The position numbers and the translations under genes are program-made. Of a stretch of DNA of 64,000 nt, positions 25,026 through 62,464 are shown in pieces. The stretch lies in the sequence record PX246730.1, one strand, 5' to 3'. The notes beneath the pieces were generated by a model. It worked only from the letters and a program-made list of their open reading frames with translations, was not told the origin of the DNA and did not search any database. The DNA is from a phage. Within the stretch, counting starts at the first letter, position 1; the number at the start of each line of letters is the position of its first letter.

Positions 25026-25102
25026 CTCTGTTTAGCTCAGCTTGGTAGAGCGTTCCGTTTGGGGCGGTAAGGCCGGAGGTTCAAGTCCTCCAACAGAGAC
25101 CA
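25026..25102 (+). tRNA. tRNA-Pro(TGG)
   Basis: 7-bp acceptor CTCTGTT/AACAGAG, D-loop AGCTTGGTA, anticodon loop TTTGGGG, T-loop TTCAAGT, CCA encoded. Confidence 0.75.
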
Positions 25103-25109
25103 AATTAAT

Positions 25110-25187
25110 GTTCCAGTAGACAAAATGGTATAGTCACCACTCTTTCAAAGTGGATATTTGAGGGTTCAAATCCCTTCTGGAACGCCA
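25110..25187 (+). tRNA. tRNA-Glu(TTC)
   Basis: acceptor GTTCCAG/CTGGAAC, anticodon loop CTTTCAA, T-loop TTCAAAT, CCA encoded. Confidence 0.7.
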
Positions 25188-25192
25188 GTTTT

Positions 25193-25267
25193 GACAGAAG
25201 ACCAATTGCAGCAAACTTAATCTTATTCATCTGAAGGTAAATCGGACAAAGAAGAGATTTGGTCTGG
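25193..25267 (+). ncRNA. framed element a (ACAGAAGACC ... GGTCTGG closing stem)
   Basis: member of 4-copy family with covarying closing stem; function unknown. Confidence 0.3.
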
Positions 25268-25279
25268 TCATTAAGAATT

Positions 25280-25355
25280 GCGGGTATAGAGAAAGGGCGT
25301 CTCACATGTCTCATTAGCATGGTATCGGCAGGTTCGACTCCTGCACCCGCCTCCA
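25280..25355 (+). tRNA. tRNA-Met/Ile2(CAT)
   Basis: anticodon arm CATGT-CTCATTA-GCATG, T-loop TTCGACT; acceptor register ambiguous. Confidence 0.55.
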
Positions 25356-25360
25356 AATTT

Positions 25361-25436
25361 ACAGAAGACCGTTTACAGCAATACTTATTAAATTTTTAGC
25401 GGAAAAAATTGAAAGATACGGTCTGGTAATACTAAA
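25361..25436 (+). ncRNA. framed element b
   Basis: AGACCG/CGGTCT closing stem (compensatory change versus element a). Confidence 0.3.
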
Positions 25437-25439
25437 CAT

Positions 25440-25513
25440 GGTTAGGAAGCACATAAGGTATGTGCGGTCGCCTGTTAAGCGAATGGCACAGGGTTCGAAT
25501 CCCTGACTAACCG
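25440..25513 (+). tRNA. tRNA-Asn(GTT)
   Basis: D-stem GCAC/GTGC, anticodon loop CTGTTAA, T-arm CAGGG-TTCGAAT-CCCTG. Confidence 0.7.
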
Positions 25514-25525
25514 CAAAATTTAAAT

Positions 25526-25613
25526 GTGTCGTTATCCCGTAGATGGTAGCGGTGGGGACTGTAAATCCCTTGTCATTGAGACTCGGTAGGTTCGACTCCT
25601 ACACGGCACACCA
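25526..25613 (+). tRNA. tRNA-Tyr(GTA), long variable arm
   Basis: acceptor GTGTCGT/ACGGCAC, anticodon loop CTGTAAA, 15-nt variable arm, CCA encoded. Confidence 0.7.
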
Positions 25614-25674
25614 ATTTTGAGAGGGCTATTTAGCCCCTCCCTTAAAGAGTTCTTACGAGTATTCTTTAAAGGAG

Positions 25675-25748
25675 CAGAAGACCAAATACAGCAAGTTACT
25701 TAAAATTTCAAGCCAATTTAATTTTGAAAAATTTAAAACTTGGTCTGG
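25675..25748 (+). ncRNA. framed element c
   Basis: AGACCA/TGGTCT closing stem. Confidence 0.3.
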
Positions 25749-25760
25749 CTCAACAAATTT

Positions 25761-25893
25761 ACAGAAGACCGTTTACAGCAAAACTTAAACAATCTATTTC
25801 TCTGGTAAAGAAAAGGCGAAGGTTCGATTCCTTCACTCGGCAGATGTCGAGTTGGTGTAATGGTAGCACTTAAGATGATAAACAACGGTCTGG
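25761..25893 (+). ncRNA. framed element d enclosing permuted tRNA halves
   Basis: GACCGTT/AACGGTC closing stem surrounds 25797-25870. Confidence 0.35.
25797..25870 (+). tRNA. candidate circularly permuted tRNA-Thr(GGT): 3' half precedes 5' half
   Basis: 3' half = anticodon arm TTTCT-CTGGTAA-AGAAA + T-arm GAAGG-TTCGATT-CCTTC + ACTCGGC; 3 nt later 5' half GTCGAGT + D-arm GTGT-AATGGTA-GCAC; acceptor strands complementary at 7/7 with one GU. Confidence 0.4.
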
Positions 25894-25896
25894 TAA

Positions 25897-26036
25897 TTAT
25901 CTTTGTAGATAAGTTATTAAGCTTACCTGTGAGTATGCGACCACAAAGGGTGAAAGGGTAAATTCTAGATTTAAACCCAACAAGGCACATCGCTACAGAC
26001 CTTAAGCAAGTCTGGGTAGCTTATCTACAAAGATAA
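25897..26036 (+). ncRNA. ~140-nt element closed by 15-bp stem (TTATCTTTGTAGATAAG / CTTATCTACAAAGATAA)
   Basis: long-range perfect inverted repeat. Confidence 0.3.
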
Positions 26037-26042
26037 TTTAAT

Positions 26043-26118
26043 GGAAGTGTAGCAGAATGGTGATGCGGCAGACTTTTAATCTGACAGGCGATGGGTTCGA
26101 ATCCCTCCACTTCTACCA
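26043..26118 (+). tRNA. tRNA-Lys(TTT)
   Basis: acceptor GGAAGTG/CACTTCT, anticodon loop CTTTTAA, T-loop TTCGAAT, CCA encoded. Confidence 0.7.
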
Positions 26119-26122
26119 ATAT

Positions 26123-26199
26123 GGTTCAGTCGCAGATAAGGTAATGCAGGGGTCTCATAAGCCCTATGAATGTGGGTTCGATTCCCATCTGAACCTCCA
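26123..26199 (+). tRNA. tRNA-Met/Ile2(CAT)
   Basis: acceptor GGTTCAG/CTGAACC, anticodon loop CTCATAA, CCA encoded. Confidence 0.7.
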
Positions 26200-26201
26200 A
26201 T

Positions 26202-26277
26202 GCTGTGAAAGCACATATGGATGTGCATTCGGCTGATAACCGAAAGGAAGAAGGTTCGAATCCTTCTCACAGTACCA
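26202..26277 (+). tRNA. tRNA-Ile(GAT)
   Basis: D-stem GCAC/GTGC, anticodon arm TTCGG-CTGATAA-CCGAA, CCA encoded. Confidence 0.75.
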
Positions 26278-26290
26278 ATTTCAATAAAGT

Positions 26291-26319
26291 TGTTGACACT
26301 GAGATGTGACTACTTTATA
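26291..26319 (+). promoter_or_regulatory. strong sigma70-like promoter TTGACA-N17-TATAGT inside tRNA array
   Basis: read directly. Confidence 0.6.
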
Positions 26320-26526
26320 GTAACCTTAGTTTTCGTTGCGTAGCGTCTATTTTGCAAATTTAAAATAAATGCAAACGACAATGTTTTTCTGGCAGTAGCT
26401 TGATAGGCTAAACACCAGTGAGGTCTTCCAATCCCTCATCAAAGAATTTGGCGTACTAGCCCACGGTATGATTAATAAGGTGGGCATCTTTAAGGGCTTT
26501 CTAAGAGAGTCTTTAAAGATTAATTA

Positions 26527-26608
26527 CGGGGCGTATCTCATCTGTCTTCTAAACAGACGTTAACCGAGTAAGTGGAGTATGCGGGTTCGAGTCCTGCCGC
26601 CTCGACCA
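26527..26608 (+). tRNA. non-canonical tRNA-like element with Arg(TCT)-type anticodon hairpin and no recognisable D-arm
   Basis: acceptor CGGGGCG/CGCCTCG, hairpin TCTGT-CTTCTAA-ACAGA, 23-nt extra segment, T-arm GCGGG-TTCGAGT-CCTGC, CCA encoded. Confidence 0.4.
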
Positions 26609-26751
26609 ATTTAGTTAGCAGATTACTTAGACGACCTAAGCGGGTCTTCCTGTAGGGAGGTGGTCTGTATCTCATGTTTTCCAGAACATGTAAATAATCT
26701 GAGAAGGGGCTTTACAGTGTTGAGATAATACGGTAAGCTTCGAATTATAGT

Positions 26752-26834
26752 ATGGGACGATGTTAAGACTCTAAGGCATGAGCAACGGCTTCCAACACCG
26801 TTTCAAAGGGGTTCGACTCCTCCGTCCCATGCCA
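26752..26834 (+). tRNA. tRNA-Trp(CCA), atypical (extra nt between acceptor and D-arm)
   Basis: acceptor ATGGGAC/GTCCCAT exact, anticodon loop TTCCAAC, CCA encoded. Confidence 0.55.
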
Positions 26835-26847
26835 AAGTCTTATTAGG

Positions 26848-26935
26848 GGTAGGTAGCGGCTAATGGTAGCCAAACTGTCTTGAAAACAGTTGCCACTGTA
26901 GAGATACGGTGAGGGTTCGACTTCTTTACTTACCG
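26848..26935 (+). tRNA. tRNA-Ser(TGA), long variable arm
   Basis: anticodon arm ACTGT-CTTGAAA-ACAGT, 20-nt variable arm, T-loop TTCGACT. Confidence 0.7.
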
Positions 26936-27091
26936 CCTAATAAGATTTTAAAGCCAAGCTTCATTCGGATGTTGCTTTGGTATCCCTCGTGTTGTCGAAC
27001 ACACTAATAAAGCACCTAGTAGGTGTCACGGAGAAGAGATAATATCAAGCTCTCCAAAGGTTCTAGTCACCGGATTAAACAAGACTATGCA

Positions 27092-27112
27092 AAGACCTTT
27101 TTAGGTCTTTTT
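27092..27112 (+). terminator. hairpin AAGACC/GGTCTT plus T-tract inside tRNA array
   Basis: read directly. Confidence 0.45.
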
Positions 27113-27191
27113 AGAGGGCTTCTAAGGTTATTACAGCTTGTTGTGGAACCTTGTTGCTTAGGTTCTTAGAAGTTCTCTAAAAAGATTTAAT

Positions 27192-27269
27192 GGGAGATTG
27201 ACGGTAATTGGTAAACCTATCTCGCTTAGAACGAGATGTTTGAGGGTTCGAATCCCTTGTCTCCTACCA
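27192..27269 (+). tRNA. tRNA with anticodon TAG (Leu-type), short variable loop
   Basis: acceptor GGGAGAT/GTCTCCT (GU ends), anticodon arm TCTCG-CTTAGAA-CGAGA, CCA encoded. Confidence 0.6.
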
Positions 27270-27276
27270 AATTAAT

Positions 27277-27352
27277 GCAGGTGTAGCAAAATGGTTATGC
27301 GGCTGACTCTTAATCAGTAAGACGATGGGTTCAATTCCCTCCACCTGTACCA
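27277..27352 (+). tRNA. tRNA-Lys(CTT)
   Basis: acceptor GCAGGTG/CACCTGT, anticodon loop CTCTTAA, CCA encoded. Confidence 0.7.
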
Positions 27353-27358
27353 GATATT

Positions 27359-27434
27359 GGGGATGTAGTTTACATGGTTAAAACATAAGTTTTGCAAAAT
27401 TAAGTACAGGGTTCAATTCCCTGCTTCTCCACCA
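27359..27434 (+). tRNA. tRNA-Ala(TGC)
   Basis: D-stem GTTT/AAAC, anticodon loop TTTGCAA, T-arm CAGGG-TTCAATT-CCCTG, CCA encoded. Confidence 0.65.
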
Positions 27435-27440
27435 ATTAGT

Positions 27441-27515
27441 GCATCCATAGTTTAAACGGGAAAATTACAGTCTTCCAAACTGAGGTTGAGGGTTCGATTC
27501 CCTCTGGATGCTCCA
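27441..27515 (+). tRNA. tRNA-Gly(TCC)
   Basis: acceptor GCATCCA/TGGATGC exact, anticodon loop CTTCCAA, CCA encoded. Confidence 0.7.
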
Positions 27516-27521
27516 AATAAT

Positions 27522-27598
27522 GCTGCTTTCGTATAATTGGCTATTACACATCCCTTGTAAGGATGGAAATGCAGGTTCGAGTCCTGTGAGCAGCACCA
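27522..27598 (+). tRNA. tRNA-Thr(TGT)
   Basis: anticodon arm CATCC-CTTGTAA-GGATG perfect, T-loop TTCGAGT, CCA encoded. Confidence 0.75.
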
Positions 27599-27602
27599 AT
27601 TC

Positions 27603-27688
27603 AGAGGTCAAGTGAAAGACCGCTGGTGTCAACTGAAGACCGTAACAAATTCCACGGAGTTGAGTTAGCGGCACAACTTCAGACCTCT
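27603..27688 (+). ncRNA. framed element f (AGAGGTC ... GACCTCT) containing GAAGACCG motif
   Basis: long-range 7-bp inverted repeat between tRNAs. Confidence 0.3.
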
Positions 27689-27693
27689 TTCAC

Positions 27694-27768
27694 ACTCGCT
27701 TAGTTTATATGGTAAAACACCACCCTTACAAGATGAAGAAAAAGGTTCAAGTCCTTTAGTGAGTACCA
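27694..27768 (+). tRNA. tRNA-Val(TAC)
   Basis: acceptor ACTCGCT/AGTGAGT, D-stem GTTT/AAAC, anticodon loop CTTACAA, CCA encoded. Confidence 0.6.
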
Positions 27769-27769
27769 T

Positions 27770-27847
27770 GTTCCAGTATCCCAATTGGCAGAGGATGCAA
27801 GCTCAAACCTTGTACTAGTGACGGTTCGAATCCGTCTTGGAACACCA
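27770..27847 (+). tRNA. tRNA with anticodon CAA (Leu-type), short variable loop
   Basis: acceptor GTTCCAG/TTGGAAC, anticodon arm GCAAG-CTCAAAC-CTTGT, CCA encoded. Confidence 0.6.
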
Positions 27848-27852
27848 ATTTT

Positions 27853-27928
27853 GCAGGATTAGTTCAAATGGATAGAGCAACAGTCTACGAAGCTGTTAAT
27901 AGGGGTTCGAATCCCTTATCCTGCGCCA
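27853..27928 (+). tRNA. tRNA-Arg(ACG)
   Basis: acceptor GCAGGAT/ATCCTGC exact, anticodon loop CTACGAA, CCA encoded. Confidence 0.7.
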
Positions 27929-27947
27929 ATTTAAAGAGGCTATTTAG

Positions 27948-28505
27948 ATGAGATATTTGAAGTATGCTTCATGGATTTTCTTAGCTTTGTTAGAGCCATT
28001 TGCAGCAATCTTAGCAGTAATTTTAGCACCCTTTGTGGTTCCATTCTACAGTGAAAAGAAAGGACACTTACCTTTTGGATTCAGATGGATGGAGACTTAT
28101 GATAACCCAATTGATGGTGACAAAGGCCACGTTGAGAGATGGGCTAAGATTAGAAAGATTGGTAAGCTCGGTGTTTATATGCAGAGAGTTGGATGGCTCT
28201 GGAGAAACAAAGCTTATAACTTCTCTTACCATGTGCTAGGAAGAGATGTAAAAGATGTTACTAAGTGGAAAGGTAATATCAACGTAAGTTCTAACCCTGA
28301 AGATAATCAGACAGGTTATCTCCTAATGTGGAACAGTAATGCTTGGGGATTATTCGCTTTTACCCCATCAATTAAAATCTTTGGTAAACAATTCTACTGG
28401 AGAATTTATGTTGGATGGAAACTTAAAAGTGTTGTCCCAGAAGAAAGAGCATTCTCAAGGGAAAGAGTTATGTTGGCATTCTTTATTCATCCACTAAGAA
28501 AGTAA
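27948..28505 (+). CDS. membrane protein encoded inside tRNA array
   Basis: 185 aa; N-terminal TM IFLALLEPFAAILAVILAPFVVPF; ATG verified. Confidence 0.45.
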   Translation: MRYLKYASWIFLALLEPFAAILAVILAPFVVPFYSEKKGHLPFGFRWMETYDNPIDGDKGHVERWAKIRKIGKLGVYMQRVGWLWRNKAYNFSYHVLGRDVKDVTKWKGNINVSSNPEDNQTGYLLMWNSNAWGLFAFTPSIKIFGKQFYWRIYVGWKLKSVVPEERAFSRERVMLAFFIHPLRK

Positions 28506-28513
28506 AGATTTAA

Positions 28514-28589
28514 AGGGGATTAGTTTACAAGGTTAAAACCTCGGTCTTTGAAATCGAAGAAGTTGGTTCAATTCCAACATCCCCCACCA
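28514..28589 (+). tRNA. tRNA-Gln(TTG)
   Basis: D-stem GTTT/AAAC, anticodon arm TCGGT-CTTTGAA-ATCGA, T-arm GTTGG-TTCAATT-CCAAC, CCA encoded. Confidence 0.7.
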
Positions 28590-28591
28590 AT

Positions 28592-28670
28592 GCTCCATTA
28601 CTCCAATTGGCAGAGAGGCCAGACTTAAAATCTGTGTTATGTATCGGTTCGAATCCGATATGGAGTACCA
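28592..28670 (+). tRNA. tRNA with anticodon TAA (Leu-type), 7-nt variable loop
   Basis: acceptor GCTCCAT/ATGGAGT, anticodon loop CTTAAAA, T-arm ATCGG-TTCGAAT-CCGAT, CCA encoded. Confidence 0.55.
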
Positions 28671-28675
28671 AATTT

Positions 28676-28751
28676 AGCGGTATAGCATAACTGGCAATGC
28701 AGCAGTCTCTGAAGCTGTCCTATTAAGGTTCAAATCCTTATGCCGCTGCCA
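28676..28751 (+). tRNA. tRNA-Gln(CTG)
   Basis: D-stem GCAT/ATGC, anticodon loop CTCTGAA, T-arm TAAGG-TTCAAAT-CCTTA, CCA encoded. Confidence 0.7.
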
Positions 28752-28782
28752 CTTCTAAGGGTTCTTACGAGAGTCCTTAAAT

Positions 28783-28858
28783 GTGGCCTTATCATAAAAG
28801 GTAATGACCCATGCTGTGAACATGGTCTATACGGGTTCAAATCCCGTAGGTCACCCCA
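28783..28858 (+). tRNA. tRNA-His(GTG)
   Basis: anticodon arm CCATG-CTGTGAA-CATGG perfect, T-arm ACGGG-TTCAAAT-CCCGT, CCA encoded. Confidence 0.75.
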
Positions 28859-28863
28859 ATTTA

Positions 28864-28937
28864 TAGTCCAAGTAGCTTATATGGTAAAGCGCGTGTCTGA
28901 AAAACATGAGAAGAGGGTTCAAATCCCACTGGACTAC
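28864..28937 (+). tRNA. tRNA-Phe(GAA)
   Basis: acceptor TAGTCCA/TGGACTA exact, anticodon loop CTGAAAA; 2 extra nt before D-stem. Confidence 0.6.
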
Positions 28938-28955
28938 CAATTTCAAAGGTGCTTA

Positions 28956-29690
28956 ATGAAAGAGATGACAGAACAAGGTAAGGAGATTTTTAATCTCTTA
29001 AAAACCGGTAGAGGGTTTTCTAATCCCCTTATTACTGGTGCAGCAGTTCTCGGTGGAACCGTAGCTGCCTCTACATCACTTGTAAGCTCTATTAGCTCTG
29101 TAACAGACCCTACAATAAAAGATAAGCTTGTTGCTGCTGGGCTTACAACAGTCCTCCTAAACAGCTTTACAACAAGCCTGACAAGCACTACAGCAACTAC
29201 TAAGACCCTGACAGACTACGGTCAAAAGTCTATTGATGAGTTTTCATCACGTATGCAGGTAGCAAAGGGATACTCCAATGTTATGGGTGCAGCAGGAGAA
29301 CAAGTTGGTTGTACACCATTCAGTGGTATTATGGGTGTTGCTACAGAGTATGGTCAAAAAGCTATTGACATGATGAACAGTACACTAGATAGTGTTAATG
29401 GTGTGTTAAGTGACTTACAAGATGCTATTGATAAGGGTCTTGATACTGTTTCTGATTTAGCTAACCAAGCTGTTAGTAAGATTAATGAAGGTATCTCGAA
29501 GATTACAGCTTATGCAGATGAAGTTGTGCAGATGATTGAAGAAGAAGCTGCCCTTATTGCAGAGTACCTTAAAACGAATATCAATGGGTTCTTAGCAGGT
29601 ATCTTACCAGACTGGTTTGATGATGCCTGTAAAACTGGTGTAATTGACACTATTGCAACACCAGAAATGAAGAGCGCATTACAGAAATAA
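28956..29690 (+). CDS. hypothetical protein (Ser/Thr-rich N-region)
   Basis: track ORF 28740 reads through three tRNAs; start moved to first ATG downstream of tRNA-Phe. Confidence 0.4.
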   Translation: MKEMTEQGKEIFNLLKTGRGFSNPLITGAAVLGGTVAASTSLVSSISSVTDPTIKDKLVAAGLTTVLLNSFTTSLTSTTATTKTLTDYGQKSIDEFSSRMQVAKGYSNVMGAAGEQVGCTPFSGIMGVATEYGQKAIDMMNSTLDSVNGVLSDLQDAIDKGLDTVSDLANQAVSKINEGISKITAYADEVVQMIEEEAALIAEYLKTNINGFLAGILPDWFDDACKTGVIDTIATPEMKSALQK

Positions 29691-29691
29691 T

Positions 29692-29784
29692 GGAAGATTA
29701 ACCCTAAAAGGTAAGGGAGCAGTTTGCTAAACTGCCAGTAGCTGAGAAATCGGTGTACCAGTTCAAGTCTGGTATCTTCCTCCA
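29692..29784 (+). tRNA. tRNA-Ser(GCT), long variable arm
   Basis: acceptor GGAAGAT/ATCTTCC exact, D-arm CCC..GGG, anticodon arm GCAGT-TTGCTAA-ACTGC, 21-nt variable arm, CCA encoded. Confidence 0.75.
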
Positions 29785-29788
29785 ATTT

Positions 29789-29864
29789 GAATCCGTGACA
29801 GAAATGGATATGTGCCTGTCTGCAAAACAGGTTTATAAGGGTTCGAGTCCCTTCGGATTCTCCA
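29789..29864 (+). tRNA. tRNA-Cys(GCA)
   Basis: acceptor GAATCCG/CGGATTC exact, anticodon arm CCTGT-CTGCAAA-ACAGG, CCA encoded. Confidence 0.75.
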
Positions 29865-59329: not shown

Positions 59330-60433
59330 TTATTCGTAGTCTCGAATAACTAACCCAACAGGGAACTGTAAAGAACCTTTACGAGTCATCTTCTGGAACT
59401 GAACCGTTAAAGGCTTCCCGATAAACTCTTCAGGATGTTCAGCAAGATACTGTTTCTTCTCATGAGTAGTCTTCCATGAGACATCTACAAAGACGTTAGG
59501 AAGAGTCTCTACAACAAACTTGCCATGACCACGCTTATCAGTCTTTACACCAGTCACTTTAAACTCTTCAGTGTGCATCTTCTTGTGCTTAATCAAGAAG
59601 TATGAACGGTGACAACACTCATAGAAGGAGTCTTCAGAGATTGAACGGTACATTGCACCTTCAAACTTAGCTTCAACCCACTTATCATGAGCTTCATCGA
59701 ACTCTTCCCAAGAATTTACACGACGAGACTTAACAGGGACAACTTTACAACCATCTCTCAAATCATTCAATGGTGAAGTCTCAATAATATCTCTACGCTC
59801 AGGCCACGTTTTAGTACTGTCACAGATATCATACCAGTAGAACTTAAGTAAGTGTCTGTCAGGATTGTCTTCATTTTTAATCATGGAGACAATATCTTCT
59901 AAGTCCCAACCATGAGCATAAATCTCTCCATCAAATTCATCAACATCTTTGTGGAGCCTTAACATTGCCATAATGTCGGGTATTAGTTCAGTAGGGATTT
60001 TATAAACAGTATTTTCACGAGAGTATGCTGTGAATACACTACCAATGCTTAAGTGTCTTGAAATTCTACAACGGACACCATCAAGTTTTGGTTGAGCATC
60101 AGCAGGGAACTTCAGATACTTTGCATGACTAACCTTTGCAGCATCATGAGCAAGCTGTACACCTACCTTCTCAGTATTCTGTGCAGACTCTTTTGTGTAA
60201 GCGTAACCTTTGCGGTCAACTTGCTTTTTATACTTAGCAGCAACTTCAAAGAGAGCTTGCTGTTCAGCGTTACGCTCATTCTTTTTACCGATGTTTTTAG
60301 GTTCTGCTGTATACTCTTCAAACATCATCTTGCCATTTTCTTTACCATAGGTTGTAATAACTTTGTCACCTACAGCAACACACGACCAGACGTTGAAGGA
60401 ACCATCTTTATTTTGTTTGTACAGAATTGTCAT
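59330..60433 (-). CDS. ATP-dependent DNA ligase
   Basis: adenylation motif KLDGVRC (KxDGxR); 367 aa; ATG verified. Confidence 0.8.
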   Translation of the reverse strand: MTILYKQNKDGSFNVWSCVAVGDKVITTYGKENGKMMFEEYTAEPKNIGKKNERNAEQQALFEVAAKYKKQVDRKGYAYTKESAQNTEKVGVQLAHDAAKVSHAKYLKFPADAQPKLDGVRCRISRHLSIGSVFTAYSRENTVYKIPTELIPDIMAMLRLHKDVDEFDGEIYAHGWDLEDIVSMIKNEDNPDRHLLKFYWYDICDSTKTWPERRDIIETSPLNDLRDGCKVVPVKSRRVNSWEEFDEAHDKWVEAKFEGAMYRSISEDSFYECCHRSYFLIKHKKMHTEEFKVTGVKTDKRGHGKFVVETLPNVFVDVSWKTTHEKKQYLAEHPEEFIGKPLTVQFQKMTRKGSLQFPVGLVIRDYE

Positions 60434-60636
60434 TTTCTCTTACCACCAATTTCTACGTCAATAACTTGAACATCGCCAGCAACATCAAACTTATGAATGA
60501 TGCTTTCCACAGTGTAAGTCCAATCCTCAATGCGAACCAACTCACCTTCTCGTGGGACGATTGGATTACGTTGAGCTACCGTTGTAGTGGAGTGAACAAC
60601 ATCATAACGGTAGATATAGTTTACTAGGACTTCCAT
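60430..60636 (-). CDS. hypothetical small protein
   Basis: 68-aa ORF. Confidence 0.35.
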   Translation of the reverse strand: MEVLVNYIYRYDVVHSTTTVAQRNPIVPREGELVRIEDWTYTVESIIHKFDVAGDVQVIDVEIGGKRK

Positions 60637-60645
60637 AGTTTTTCC

Positions 60646-60879
60646 TTAAAAGGGTAAGTCGATATCAATACGTTCACCCTTAAGGACTCCAGTACGGTCT
60701 TTTGCAATCTTCCCTTCAACAATAAGAATGTGTGCAGACCTTAAAGTGTCACTGTTAAAGGCTTTTACGAACTTACTAGGCATCACTACAATGGACATCT
60801 CCTGAATCAACTCTGGAGTATAGCAATTGTCGTGAAGTTGCTGAATAACGTCTGCAAGTGTCATTTTTGATGTCTCCAA
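60646..60879 (-). CDS. hypothetical small protein
   Basis: 77-aa ORF. Confidence 0.4.
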   Translation of the reverse strand: METSKMTLADVIQQLHDNCYTPELIQEMSIVVMPSKFVKAFNSDTLRSAHILIVEGKIAKDRTGVLKGERIDIDLPF

Positions 60880-61070
60880 TACTCAATGTCAATAAGTTCT
60901 TGTGCAATGCTTTTCAGATTACCTTTCAAGAAAACCTTCTCAGAACCTGAAAGAGATGAATTGTCAATTAACCTGTTCATTCTCTCAAACAACTTCTGTT
61001 TACGATTCTTGATAGTTTCCTTTGAAGCATCTTTCATCATCGCTGCATGGGTTCTTCCACGGTGGCTCAT
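60861..61070 (-). CDS. hypothetical small protein
   Basis: 69-aa ORF. Confidence 0.35.
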   Translation of the reverse strand: MSHRGRTHAAMMKDASKETIKNRKQKLFERMNRLIDNSSLSGSEKVFLKGNLKSIAQELIDIEYWRHQK

Positions 61071-61121
61071 AAGCCCTCCTATACAAGATGTAGTATAAGG
61101 TACTCTTCCCTGAGCACCTTG

Positions 61122-61634
61122 TCAACTTAGTTTTGCAAACTCTCCGTGAAGTTTAATAGCAGCTTCACAGTAAGCTTTATGGGCTTCTTCTTCTGTTGTG
61201 TATGTCCCTATATGTATAGTCTTGCCATTATGGTTAATCTGGGCTTTCCACTTACCAGACTTACTTCTACTTGTACCTTTTAAGTTTTTTGATGTTCTAG
61301 GTTGTCTCCTATTAGACATATTCTGTTCTTTTGTGGCCTCTCTTAGATTGTCCCAAGCGTTATTCAAACCATCTCCATCTTTGTGGTCAATTTGCTTATC
61401 AGGCCACTTGCCTGTCATCCAGAACCAAGCAATTCGGTGATTGCCTGTCCTGTATCCTAAAATCTGTGTGTGCATATACACACCAGACCTTGTGCGCTTA
61501 ATTGCTCCGGCTTGGCTTCCAATAACCACCCTACTACTGTGTGGAGGTCTGCCAATCCATGTTAAGACCCCTGTTTCGGGGTCATAATCTAACCAAGATT
61601 TTAACTGTTCATGTGTGAATCCACAATCTCTCAT
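61122..61634 (-). CDS. HNH endonuclease with AP2-like DNA-binding domain
   Basis: HNH motif IDHKDGDGLNNAWDNLREATKEQN; AP2-like GKWKAQINHNGKTIHIGTYTTEEEAHKAY; ATG overlaps polymerase stop. Confidence 0.7.
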   Translation of the reverse strand: MRDCGFTHEQLKSWLDYDPETGVLTWIGRPPHSSRVVIGSQAGAIKRTRSGVYMHTQILGYRTGNHRIAWFWMTGKWPDKQIDHKDGDGLNNAWDNLREATKEQNMSNRRQPRTSKNLKGTSRSKSGKWKAQINHNGKTIHIGTYTTEEEAHKAYCEAAIKLHGEFAKLS

Positions 61635-62193
61635 CAATGTACCTCATACCACGATTTACCAACCTTTGCTGTACCAGTTACAAGTGTTTCTTTCCTCAAA
61701 CCTAAGTTTTTTGAAGCTTGTCCATACATCCAGTCAGCAATTGCTTTCATATCCTGTGTCATACCCTCTGGACATTCCCAACTATTTTCATCGTGATATG
61801 CCAGAAGTAACCTTGCTCCGATAGCTGGTTTTCGAGCATTCAGTTTTGTCAGGCCATCTTCACAGGCTTTTCTTGCTGCTAGGTTGATGGCCTCATTCTG
61901 AATCTGGGCTTCCGAACTCATCAAGAGGTAGTTCAGTAGTTTATGTGGAGATTTGCACCATATCCATGCTCCAGCGACCCTGATATAACCACCTTTAGCA
62001 ATTGAAGAATTCTTCCCAAAAACCTCTTCCAGAGCCTTTTTAGACGCCTTAAAATCGGCTTCTAAGCTATCAAGTAACTTCTTAATCTTTGGCAGACGCA
62101 TATAGTAAGTTTGTTTAGTCAATGCACCTTCTTCCGTAGATGATGCTTTGATAGTTTTTGCAAACTTCTCATCACCTGCACCAAACAATACAT
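61634..62193 (-). CDS. DNA polymerase (family A, T7-type), exon 2 (C-terminal palm)
   Basis: LFGAGDEK, SPHKLLNYLL, AYHDE (motif C), KVGKSWYEVH align with T7 gp5 C-terminus. Confidence 0.8.
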
Positions 62194-62464
62194 CTGGTCA
62201 ATACACTCGCAAGGTGTACCAGTTCTCTTATGAACTTCTCCGCATTTCTACGGAGTGTCGGACTATATCACGTAGTAGTAATACTACCGTTGCACTTGGG
62301 AATGGTCATTAGCTTACCACCCTACTCTACTCAGTTCATACATTAAGTATGCTTTTCGATAGTCTCTGAACGTTCCTCTTAAGAGGCTTCGCTGCTGATT
62401 ACCATATCTTTACAGACTTAGGCTTCCAGCAATTCACAACGTTTTACATGCGCCACTGACGCAT
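62194..62464 (-). mobile_element. group I intron (ORF-less) in DNA polymerase gene
   Basis: on the RNA strand, in order: P AAUUGCUGGAAGCC, Q AAUCAGCAGC, R GUUCAGAGACUAUCG, S GAUAUAGUCCGACA; interrupts reading frame within motif B; splice sites approximate. Confidence 0.8.

Follow-up and report, generated by a model that had tools for sequence, protein, structure and literature searches.

An HNH-AP2 endonuclease gene as an optional cassette beside the intron-containing DNA polymerase gene of a Felixounavirus phage

The polymerase locus and its group I intron

The window analyzed here, a 64,000-nucleotide stretch of phage DNA (PX246730.1), derives from a Felix O1-like myophage of the genus Felixounavirus. 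Its segment 60400-64000 matches 260 phage records, the best of which, from Escherichia phages phiWec172, phiWec174, and phiWec177, align over the full length at 96.9% identity. The features considered lie on the minus strand in the order polymerase exon 1, intron, exon 2, HNH open reading frame (ORF), a 55-nt intergenic box, and a small gene at 60861-61070 (PHROG 5180, function unknown); beyond 60861 on the same strand follow further small genes and a DNA ligase gene. The ORFs upstream of the HNH gene encode a family A DNA polymerase that is split by a group I intron. Exon 1 (62459..64000) runs past the window end, with the counterpart of Felix O1 polymerase residues 212-724 present, and exon 2 (61634..62190; 554 coding nt plus the stop codon TGA at 61636-61634) corresponds to residues 725-909. 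Comparisons with relatives draw on 38 usable related loci from GenBank phages and IMG/VR, whose classes were assigned by translated search against reference proteins. Counts across records come from searches with chimeric queries, in which the intron or the intronic ORF was joined to the common 69-nt 3′ end of the HNH gene, hereafter the HNH marker.

The intron matches Rfam family RF00028 (64.2 bits against a gathering score of 50; E 7e-15) and is the sole group I intron in the window. The 5′ end of the Rfam match extends into the exon, and the boundaries were therefore derived from the sequence: exon 1 ends at U 62459, the intron occupies 62458..62191 (268 nt), and exon 2 begins at 62190. In the P1 helix, AUGCGU/cagugGCGCAU (the slash marks the splice border), the exonic AUGCGU pairs with the intronic GCGCAU, its last U facing a G, and the intron 3′ end reads ...AGAUG, with a terminal G. 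Joining the exons yields GIYALLFGAGDEK in frame, identical to the uninterrupted protein of intronless relatives; this stretch is polymerase motif B (T3 counterpart FIYGFLYGAGDEK), which the intron enters between IYA and LLFGAGDEK. Alignment of relatives additionally reveals compensatory pairs in two intron stems, and the intron is predicted to splice. The original prediction that the intron contains no ORF is borne out, as none of at least 40 aa is found on its coding strand; the sole frame entering the intron is read-through from exon 1, which stops at 62418. An ORF-less polymerase intron was noted earlier for phage Meda (PMC6486253).

At 96-100% identity, the window's intron is present in 97 of the 260 records, where it falls into three size classes. 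In the class of ~800 nt, the P6 stem is extended (UCUCUGUUAGGA...UCCUAACAGAGA), and its terminal loop contains a 161-aa ORF. This intronic ORF, found in 40 of the 97 intron-bearing records, is of the endonuclease VII type (Pfam Endonuclease_7, E 6e-20), and the proteins of EC6, JH2, and FSL SP-010 have been described as DHHRN-family homing endonucleases encoded in introns (PMC6083498). The ~311-nt class, represented by Mushroom among others, retains both ends of the ORF, indicating that the ORF was deleted there. In the 268-nt class, to which the window's intron belongs, a short P6 hairpin (CCUCU-UA-AGAGG) stands where relatives have the endonuclease VII-type ORF, and the stem differs from that of the long form by a compensatory pair. 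Most of the 40 records with the intronic endonuclease gene are without the HNH gene; since the intron has an endonuclease of its own in these 40 of 97 records, the HNH gene is not needed to explain its spread. By sequence comparison, the intron is an element separate from the HNH cassette 555 nt downstream.

The 3′ third of the polymerase gene, from ~400 nt before the intron site to the stop codon, is a mosaic of old alleles. Among genomes with a different allele, nucleotide identity to the window ranges from 48% to 88% in this region, versus ~95% upstream. Felix O1 exon 2 has 51-88% nucleotide identity to the window across the exon, and the two polymerase proteins are 76% identical over exon 2 versus 98% over exon 1.

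The HNH-AP2 gene and its insertion site

The ORF claimed at 61122..61637 on the minus strand exists, with a mechanical start at TTG 61637; the likely start is the ATG at 61634-61632, which gives a gene for a 170-aa protein at 61122..61634 ending in a TGA stop at 61124-61122. Its start does overlap the polymerase stop, as had been proposed: the ATG and the polymerase TGA (61636-61634) form TGATG, with one A in common. A GAGG Shine-Dalgarno motif (61642..61645), read from the sequence 7 nt upstream of the ATG, lies within the last polymerase codons GAG GTA CAT TGA. The frame differs from that of the polymerase, and the gene lies outside any intron or intein.

The further claim of a free-standing HNH-AP2 endonuclease agrees with the domain content of the protein and with its position as a separate ORF between genes. 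Both Pfam matches exceed their cut-offs, HNH_3 over residues 66-106 (E 7.6e-15; 54.7 bits against 24.8) and AP2 over residues 122-164 (E 3.8e-9; 37.2 bits against 33.3), and the protein matches PHROG 99, "HNH endonuclease" (E 3.7e-64). Solved plant AP2/ERF domains match the C-terminal part, WRI1 best (E 5e-9), followed by those of TEM1, ERF096, and AtERF1 (E 0.0015-0.011). At the DNA level, the gene is 99.4% identical to a Meda gene annotated "HNH endonuclease," and records of Felixounavirus phages, Meda, BPS17L1, and ASO1B among them, already annotate it; Mushroom has a different allele here, labeled "HNH homing endonuclease, AP2/ERF domain." No paralogue of the protein was found elsewhere in the window.

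The HNH core can be aligned to that of I-HmuI (1U3E) with no gaps, though the match is weak (E 0.04). In this alignment, D83, H84, N96, and N105 correspond to I-HmuI D74, H75, N87, and N96, which we take to be the catalytic Asp-His pair, a structural Asn, and a metal-binding Asn. I-HmuI, from Bacillus phage SPO1, is a strand-specific nickase, and a nickase of this kind is a reasonable guess, by analogy, for the window protein; I-HmuI differs from it in being encoded within a polymerase intron and in having different DNA-binding modules. We infer nuclease activity for the protein, as we do its target site and mode of expression. The four residues are conserved in 12 of 12 copies of the window's allele, and the gene is intact in all 12 genomes examined, with a dN/dS of ~0.07. 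The allele is under strong purifying selection, which might also reflect a benefit to the phage and not selfish homing.

The promoter scan gave no promoter-like site between the polymerase and HNH genes, and promoter and terminator matches overall were no more numerous than in shuffled sequence. With no promoter of its own, the HNH gene would probably be read from the polymerase messenger, its translation coupled through the TGATG overlap and the GAGG in the last polymerase codons. If this coupling is correct, HNH translation would follow that of exon 2 and would depend on splicing. Downstream, the HNH stop codon overlaps the TTGACA of a conserved intergenic box (61071..61125, minus strand; TTGACAAGGTGCTCAGGGAAGAGTACCTTATAC...AGGAGG) that precedes the gene at 60861-61070. 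A promoter role for this TTGACA box is conceivable but not claimed, as the scan gave no call there.

Comparison with relatives reveals both empty and filled versions of the site, which align to the nucleotide. The empty site reads GTACAC TAA T-TAGTA-TTGACAAGGTGCTCA (CAC TAA T-TAGTA-TTGACAAGG) and is found in EC6, Tribble, JH2, VpaE1, and six IMG/VR genomes (L008-L012 and L015); the filled site reads GTACAT TGA TG-[HNH]-CTAAG-TTGACAAGGTGCTCA, with the same downstream box TTGACAAGG. The cassette thus takes the place of ~5 bases between the polymerase stop codon and the conserved TTGACA box, and the intergenic box is its right-hand border in all relatives. The HNH marker was found in ~136 of the 260 related records and is absent from about half. 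On this comparison, the HNH gene is an optional cassette, separate from the intron.

At least four HNH alleles occupy the one site: the window, ULIM9, and Felix O1 types and a fourth type carried by Mushroom, L007, and L018. Protein identity between alleles is only 39-53%. HNH_3 is present in all four types; AP2 scores above the cut-off in the window, ULIM9, and Felix O1 types, and the Mushroom type scores below it (26.2 vs. 33.3 bits). The last ~70 nt, encoding ...EEAHKAYCEAAIKLHGEFAKLS, are common to the HNH alleles sequenced across this stretch, at 93-100% identity, which suggests that alleles have replaced one another through recombination between the 3′ end of the polymerase gene and the conserved HNH 3′ end. 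One decayed copy was observed, a ULIM9-type sister allele with a premature stop in phage MBP4696116; decayed copies are typical of homing endonuclease genes. Presence and absence at one exact site, together with the four or more alleles, make intronless homing of a free-standing endonuclease plausible, and this part of the original prediction stands to that extent.

The window's allele is found behind four exon-2 haplotype clusters (A, B, C, and D), and it is 93-98% identical across genomes while exon 2 is only 74-79% identical. This allele identity approximates that of the genome backbone, as does that of the downstream flank, and there is consequently no sign of a recent sweep. A reading of these values as recent horizontal spread of the HNH gene was withdrawn, given that flank and backbone are equally similar and the polymerase 3′ region is the outlier. 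With the HNH gene and its downstream flank at backbone identity, what stands out at the locus is the stretch of polymerase gene that the two endonuclease sites enclose.

The HNH gene in relation to the intron

The original prediction likened the arrangement to collaborative homing, in which the HNH protein would act at the intron insertion site of intronless polymerase genes. The genome comparison argues otherwise: intronless carriers of the window's allele have a site sequence identical to that of non-carriers, the outcome that the original prediction itself had named as refuting. Across the 260 records, ~67 contain both the intron and the HNH marker, ~30 the intron only, ~69 the marker only, and ~94 neither; the marker is present in 67 of 97 intron records versus 69 of 163 intronless records.

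Insertion sites were compared in detail among carriers of the window's allele. All intron-bearing alleles read TATGCGT/TATTGTT at this site (slash, insertion point). Intronless genomes have two main haplotypes, a Felix O1 type, CTACGCCC/TGTTATTT (site CATCTACGCCC/TGTTATTTGG), and a wV8 type, CTATGCAC/TGCTGTTC (site TATCTATGCAC/TGCTGTTCGG), with a third variant in L013 and L014. The window's HNH allele is present in seven intronless genomes and coexists with both main haplotypes: L017 has the Felix O1-type site; L006, L016, PHB11, TH10, and ASO1B have the wV8 type; and SeKF_63 has a one-base variant of the latter (CTATGCGC). The carrier L006 and the HNH-less, intronless L012 are identical from -45 to +37 around the insertion site, and the carrier ASO1B and the HNH-less, intronless L015 are identical over ±31 nt.

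A matched set of ten genomes of exon-2 cluster D, four HNH-positive and six HNH-less, was compared over the last 1500 nt of the polymerase gene. Fixed differences occur at the HNH junction only, namely the last base of the final His codon (CAT vs. CAC) and the second base of the stop codon (TGA vs. TAA). In an exact 30-mer scan of all intronless carriers of the window's allele against all intronless non-carriers, 30-mers were unshared only at the HNH junction and at -303..-272; the insertion site, at -554, was shared. The -303..-272 stretch was rejected as HNH-linked, because this patch is shuffled and highly polymorphic irrespective of the HNH gene. Likewise, a synonymous serine codon swap (AGC/TCG) 20 nt before the polymerase stop was considered as an immunity mutation linked to the HNH gene and discarded, as the carriers L006, L016, and 35FD have AGC, the codon of the non-carriers. 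Carriers and non-carriers show no immunity difference where the intron inserts. Were the enzyme to cut the intronless site, the genomes of its own carriers would be cut too, which leaves collaborative homing unsupported for the window's allele.

An association of a different kind appears when introns are divided by form. ORF-less and ORF-deleted introns are accompanied by the HNH marker in 52 of 57 records, and as the marker-negative JLBYU28, KEP1, and MBP4696116 do contain a ULIM9-type HNH gene, the count rises to at least 55 of 57. For the ~311-nt ORF-deleted class, all listed records have the marker. ORF-bearing introns are accompanied by it in 15 of 40 records, and the four negatives that were checked (EC6, JH2, Tribble, and VpaE1) have an empty site. 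A naive Fisher test of at least 55/57 against 15/40 gives p ~1e-10 on records that include many near-identical isolates; collapsed to distinct haplotype contexts, the comparison becomes 5/5 versus 2/4 (p = 0.17). The pairing of ORF-less introns with the HNH gene could reflect endonuclease turnover, trans-homing or hitchhiking, or plain linkage. The link between HNH type and exon-2 type is only a loose one.

In phage tootiki, an ORF-less intron lies in a Felix O1-type polymerase gene in which the exon is changed only from about -8 to +15 nt. This pattern suggests either a cut near the insertion site by an enzyme acting in trans or recombination inside the intron.

Competing explanations and comparison with known systems

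We consider it reasonably likely that the window gene encodes a free-standing homing-type endonuclease whose target is its own insertion junction and which is independent of the intron. This reading draws on the domain identity of the protein, its intact catalytic motif, the purifying selection acting on it, its exact presence or absence among relatives, and the existence of several alleles. An HNH (His-Me finger) nuclease head and an AP2 DNA-binding tail are encoded in an optional cassette of ~510 nt, whose ends lie precisely at the polymerase stop and at the TTGACA box that precedes the next gene. The likeliest substrate would be the uninterrupted junction of cassette-less relatives, GTACAC TAA TTAGTA TTGACAAGG, which the AP2 domain would recognize, with a nick or cut made nearby. 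Insertion would destroy the junction and render the carrier immune, and in mixed infections the nick or break would be repaired from the carrier genome, copying the cassette. The junction is proposed as the target by exclusion, because it is the sole sequence that always separates non-carriers from carriers, and we infer it on that basis. Counting against this choice, many free-standing phage endonucleases cut in a neighboring gene and not at their own insertion point.

In an alternative that we regard as unlikely, the HNH protein cuts the 3′ end of the polymerase gene, though not the intron site, and repair tracts sometimes reach the intron. An ORF-less intron would then be carried along, by trans-homing, hitchhiking, or turnover, and could lose or never need an endonuclease gene of its own. 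Such a process would account for the excess of the HNH gene among ORF-less and ORF-deleted introns (at least 55/57 vs. 15/40) and for the 311-nt introns, which lost their ORF and carry the marker in all listed records; it has a precedent in T4 mobE and the nrdB intron (PMC2790892), and endonuclease turnover has been proposed by Barth et al. (PMC10448857). However, the counts ignore relatedness and dwindle to 5/5 versus 2/4 (p = 0.17) when contexts are collapsed, linkage alone predicts an association between elements 555 nt apart, and the HNH type goes only loosely with the exon-2 type. The short co-converted exon of tootiki (~-8 to +15 nt) points instead to a cut at the insertion site, and the 268-nt intron, with its compensatory stem pair, is no simple deletion of the ORF-bearing forms. 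The near-universal pairing hints at a functional link; the preferred explanation, a cassette that homes independently of the intron, treats it as linkage. A broader and tentative version, which we think possible but doubtful, views the Felixounavirus polymerase locus as a natural turnover or trans-homing series forming an "endonuclease island." Under it, an intron without its own endonuclease would spread or persist only with an HNH-AP2 cassette 555 nt downstream, and the 3′ third of this essential polymerase gene, unusually divergent and shuffled, would be flanked and driven by the two selfish elements; the basis of this version is the association by intron form together with the mosaic exon 2, rather than cleavage.

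Retention of the nuclease for the benefit of the phage, whether in excluding or degrading competitor DNA or in aiding replication or recombination, is a less probable alternative to homing. The low dN/dS (~0.07), the 12 of 12 intact copies, an expression apparently tied to the polymerase gene, and a backbone-level divergence suggestive of long residence are all compatible with it, but a gene whose marker is missing from about half of the records, with four checked loci empty, is dispensable, and very different alleles replace it at the same site, one sister allele having a premature stop. Least probable of all is collaborative homing, in which the HNH protein would cut the intronless polymerase gene at the insertion site and the intron would protect the carrier. 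The layout, in which an HNH_3 gene immediately follows a family A polymerase gene and an ORF-less intron lies in a conserved motif, mirrors that of T3 gene 5.3 and F-CphI/psbA, and the intron and HNH marker co-occur above chance (naive odds ratio 3.0). Against this stand the seven intronless genomes that have the window's allele on both main site haplotypes, the identity of L006 to HNH-less genomes from -45 to +37, the 1500 nt in which no fixed difference occurs except at the HNH junction, the ~69 intronless records with an HNH gene at the locus, and the 25 records with an intron and no HNH marker, among which EC6, JH2, Tribble, and VpaE1 were verified as empty. By this comparison of genomes, collaborative homing is close to refuted.

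HNH-AP2 homing endonucleases, reported from phages, cyanobacteria, and ciliates (Magnani et al. 2004, as cited in PMC5029118 and PMC10448857), are the closest formal match to the window gene, and nothing substantial differs between them. In the literature searched, no published biochemical characterization of an HNH protein at the polymerase-stop site was found. Like the window gene, gene 5.3 of T3 encodes an HNH_3 endonuclease and immediately follows a T7-type family A polymerase gene, and T3 and Felixounavirus are alike in having relatives with a group I intron in polymerase motif B. In the account attributed to Bonocora and Shub in 2009, on T3 gene 5.3 and I-TslI of phage PhiI, gp5.3 reportedly cuts the intron insertion site; the comparison above argues that the window HNH, unlike it, spares that site. 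The T3 protein also differs in its length of 101 aa and in having no AP2 domain. Homology between the two proteins was considered and rejected, as they have the HNH_3 domain in common only and no pairwise similarity. The T3 gene 5.3/I-TslI system is summarized in PMC3984707 and PMC10448857.

T4 MobE, which nicks one strand and mobilizes in trans the nrdB intron with its defunct I-TevIII (Wilson and Edgell 2009, PMC2790892), is comparable in other respects. Both genes are promoterless, free-standing HNH genes on the transcript of an upstream gene, presumptively so in the window, and in both cases the neighboring gene has a group I intron that lacks a functional endonuclease. MobE differs in its DNA-binding part and in having a mapped target, in nrdB. 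In cyanophage S-PM2, F-CphI and the psbA intron represent collaborative homing in which the insertion site is cut (PMC6083498, PMC3984707). F-CphI has an endonuclease VII (DHHRN) motif, a type that in Felixounavirus relatives sits inside the intron, and the comparison of insertion sites argues that the window's free-standing HNH, unlike F-CphI, does not act at the intron site.

The HNH gene is of a routine kind, a phage homing-type endonuclease gene, and as both it and the intron have been annotated or published in relatives, the finding itself matters little. Genome sequences were enough to put the collaborative-homing reading to the test, through the question of whether the presumed target has a different sequence in intronless carriers. 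The locus is represented in ~260 sequenced relatives that include the empty site, four HNH alleles, and intronless genes as well as ORF-less, ORF-deleted, and ORF-bearing introns; with every combination present, it offers a convenient system for crosses addressing turnover and trans-homing.

A related intron occurs in the polymerase gene of the T7-like Yersinia phage YpP-G, where the endonuclease VII-type gene is 46% identical to that of Felixounavirus. The YpP-G intron interrupts the same motif B some three codons further upstream, and the two introns together mark motif B as a recurrent landing site.

Mosaic structure of the polymerase gene and the adjoining HNH alleles

In its 3′-terminal third (61634 to about 62860, minus strand), the polymerase gene is a mosaic in which old alleles have been shuffled. 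This segment, which begins roughly 400 nt upstream of the intron site, ends with the stop codon and is bracketed by the intron and HNH sites, shares 48–88% nucleotide identity with relatives carrying a different allele, as compared with approximately 95% upstream and downstream in the same genomes.

Comparing the 3′ end of the HNH gene (window 61122–61190, minus strand) with the equivalent position in four related loci (L019, L020, L025, and L013) shows that these last ~70 nt are common to four HNH-AP2 alleles, at 93–100% identity; the remainder of the gene is very different. This sharing suggests that alleles have been swapped by recombination inside the conserved 3′ end. Where the window protein has N105, the residue aligned with N96 of I-HmuI, ULIM9-type alleles (L020, 5001–5534; L013, 5557–6093) carry a serine; the asparagine three residues farther on is invariant across all HNH alleles. 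The ULIM9-type gene of Salmonella phage MBP4696116 (OP515798; locus L041, 2907–3440) is interrupted by an in-frame stop (HRLA*LYVYG), and its annotation divides it into two ORFs; either the endonuclease gene is decaying or the stop is an error of sequencing.

Forms of the polymerase intron and T7-like counterparts

Three forms of the polymerase intron occur among the 97 intron records: an ORF-less form of 268 nt; a form of ~311 nt in which the two ends of a deleted ORF are still present; and a form of ~780–805 nt whose P6 loop holds a 161-aa endonuclease VII-type homing gene. The loci cited for these forms are the window (62191–62458, minus strand), L023 (EC6), L002 (GEC_vB_B1), and the related loci L027, L030, L024, and L025. 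In VpaE1 the intronic endonuclease VII-type gene is degenerate, and two of the intron stems differ from lineage to lineage by compensatory base changes.

The T7-like Yersinia phage YpP-G (L043, 2350–3214) also has a polymerase intron, and the endonuclease VII-type gene in it is related to that of Felixounavirus (46% identity). This intron is inserted after the AKTF of motif B, approximately three codons upstream of the position used in Felixounavirus. Directly after the polymerase gene of T3 lies gp5.3 (L042, 2669–2974), which has an HNH_3 domain only, without AP2.

Doubtful database records

In the record of Salmonella phage GEC_vB_BS (MW006475; locus L026, 4500–4911), the final ~100 nt of the HNH gene begin ~100 nt after the intron, and the record lacks polymerase exon 2 as well as the bulk of the HNH gene. 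Because both are present in the sister record MG969407, this arrangement is probably a misassembly. Three further records, attributed to Campylobacter phages A132 and A126 (MG065664 and MG065668) and Staphylococcus phage SA1 (GU169904), contain Felixounavirus sequence of the polymerase/HNH locus at 98–100% identity: the Campylobacter phage records match the intron at 100%, and the SA1 record matches the common 69-nt HNH 3′ end at 98.6%. These records are probably contaminated or mislabelled.

Flanking small genes and tRNA array

Between the ligase and the HNH/polymerase region (window 60400–61070), relatives vary in the number and content of their small genes, as judged against the corresponding part of L008, L012, L023, and L030; for example, an additional ORF immediately follows the TTGACA box in L008 and L030. 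Elsewhere in the window, 25026–29861 (plus strand) contains an array of 22 tRNA genes, as expected of Felix O1-like phages.
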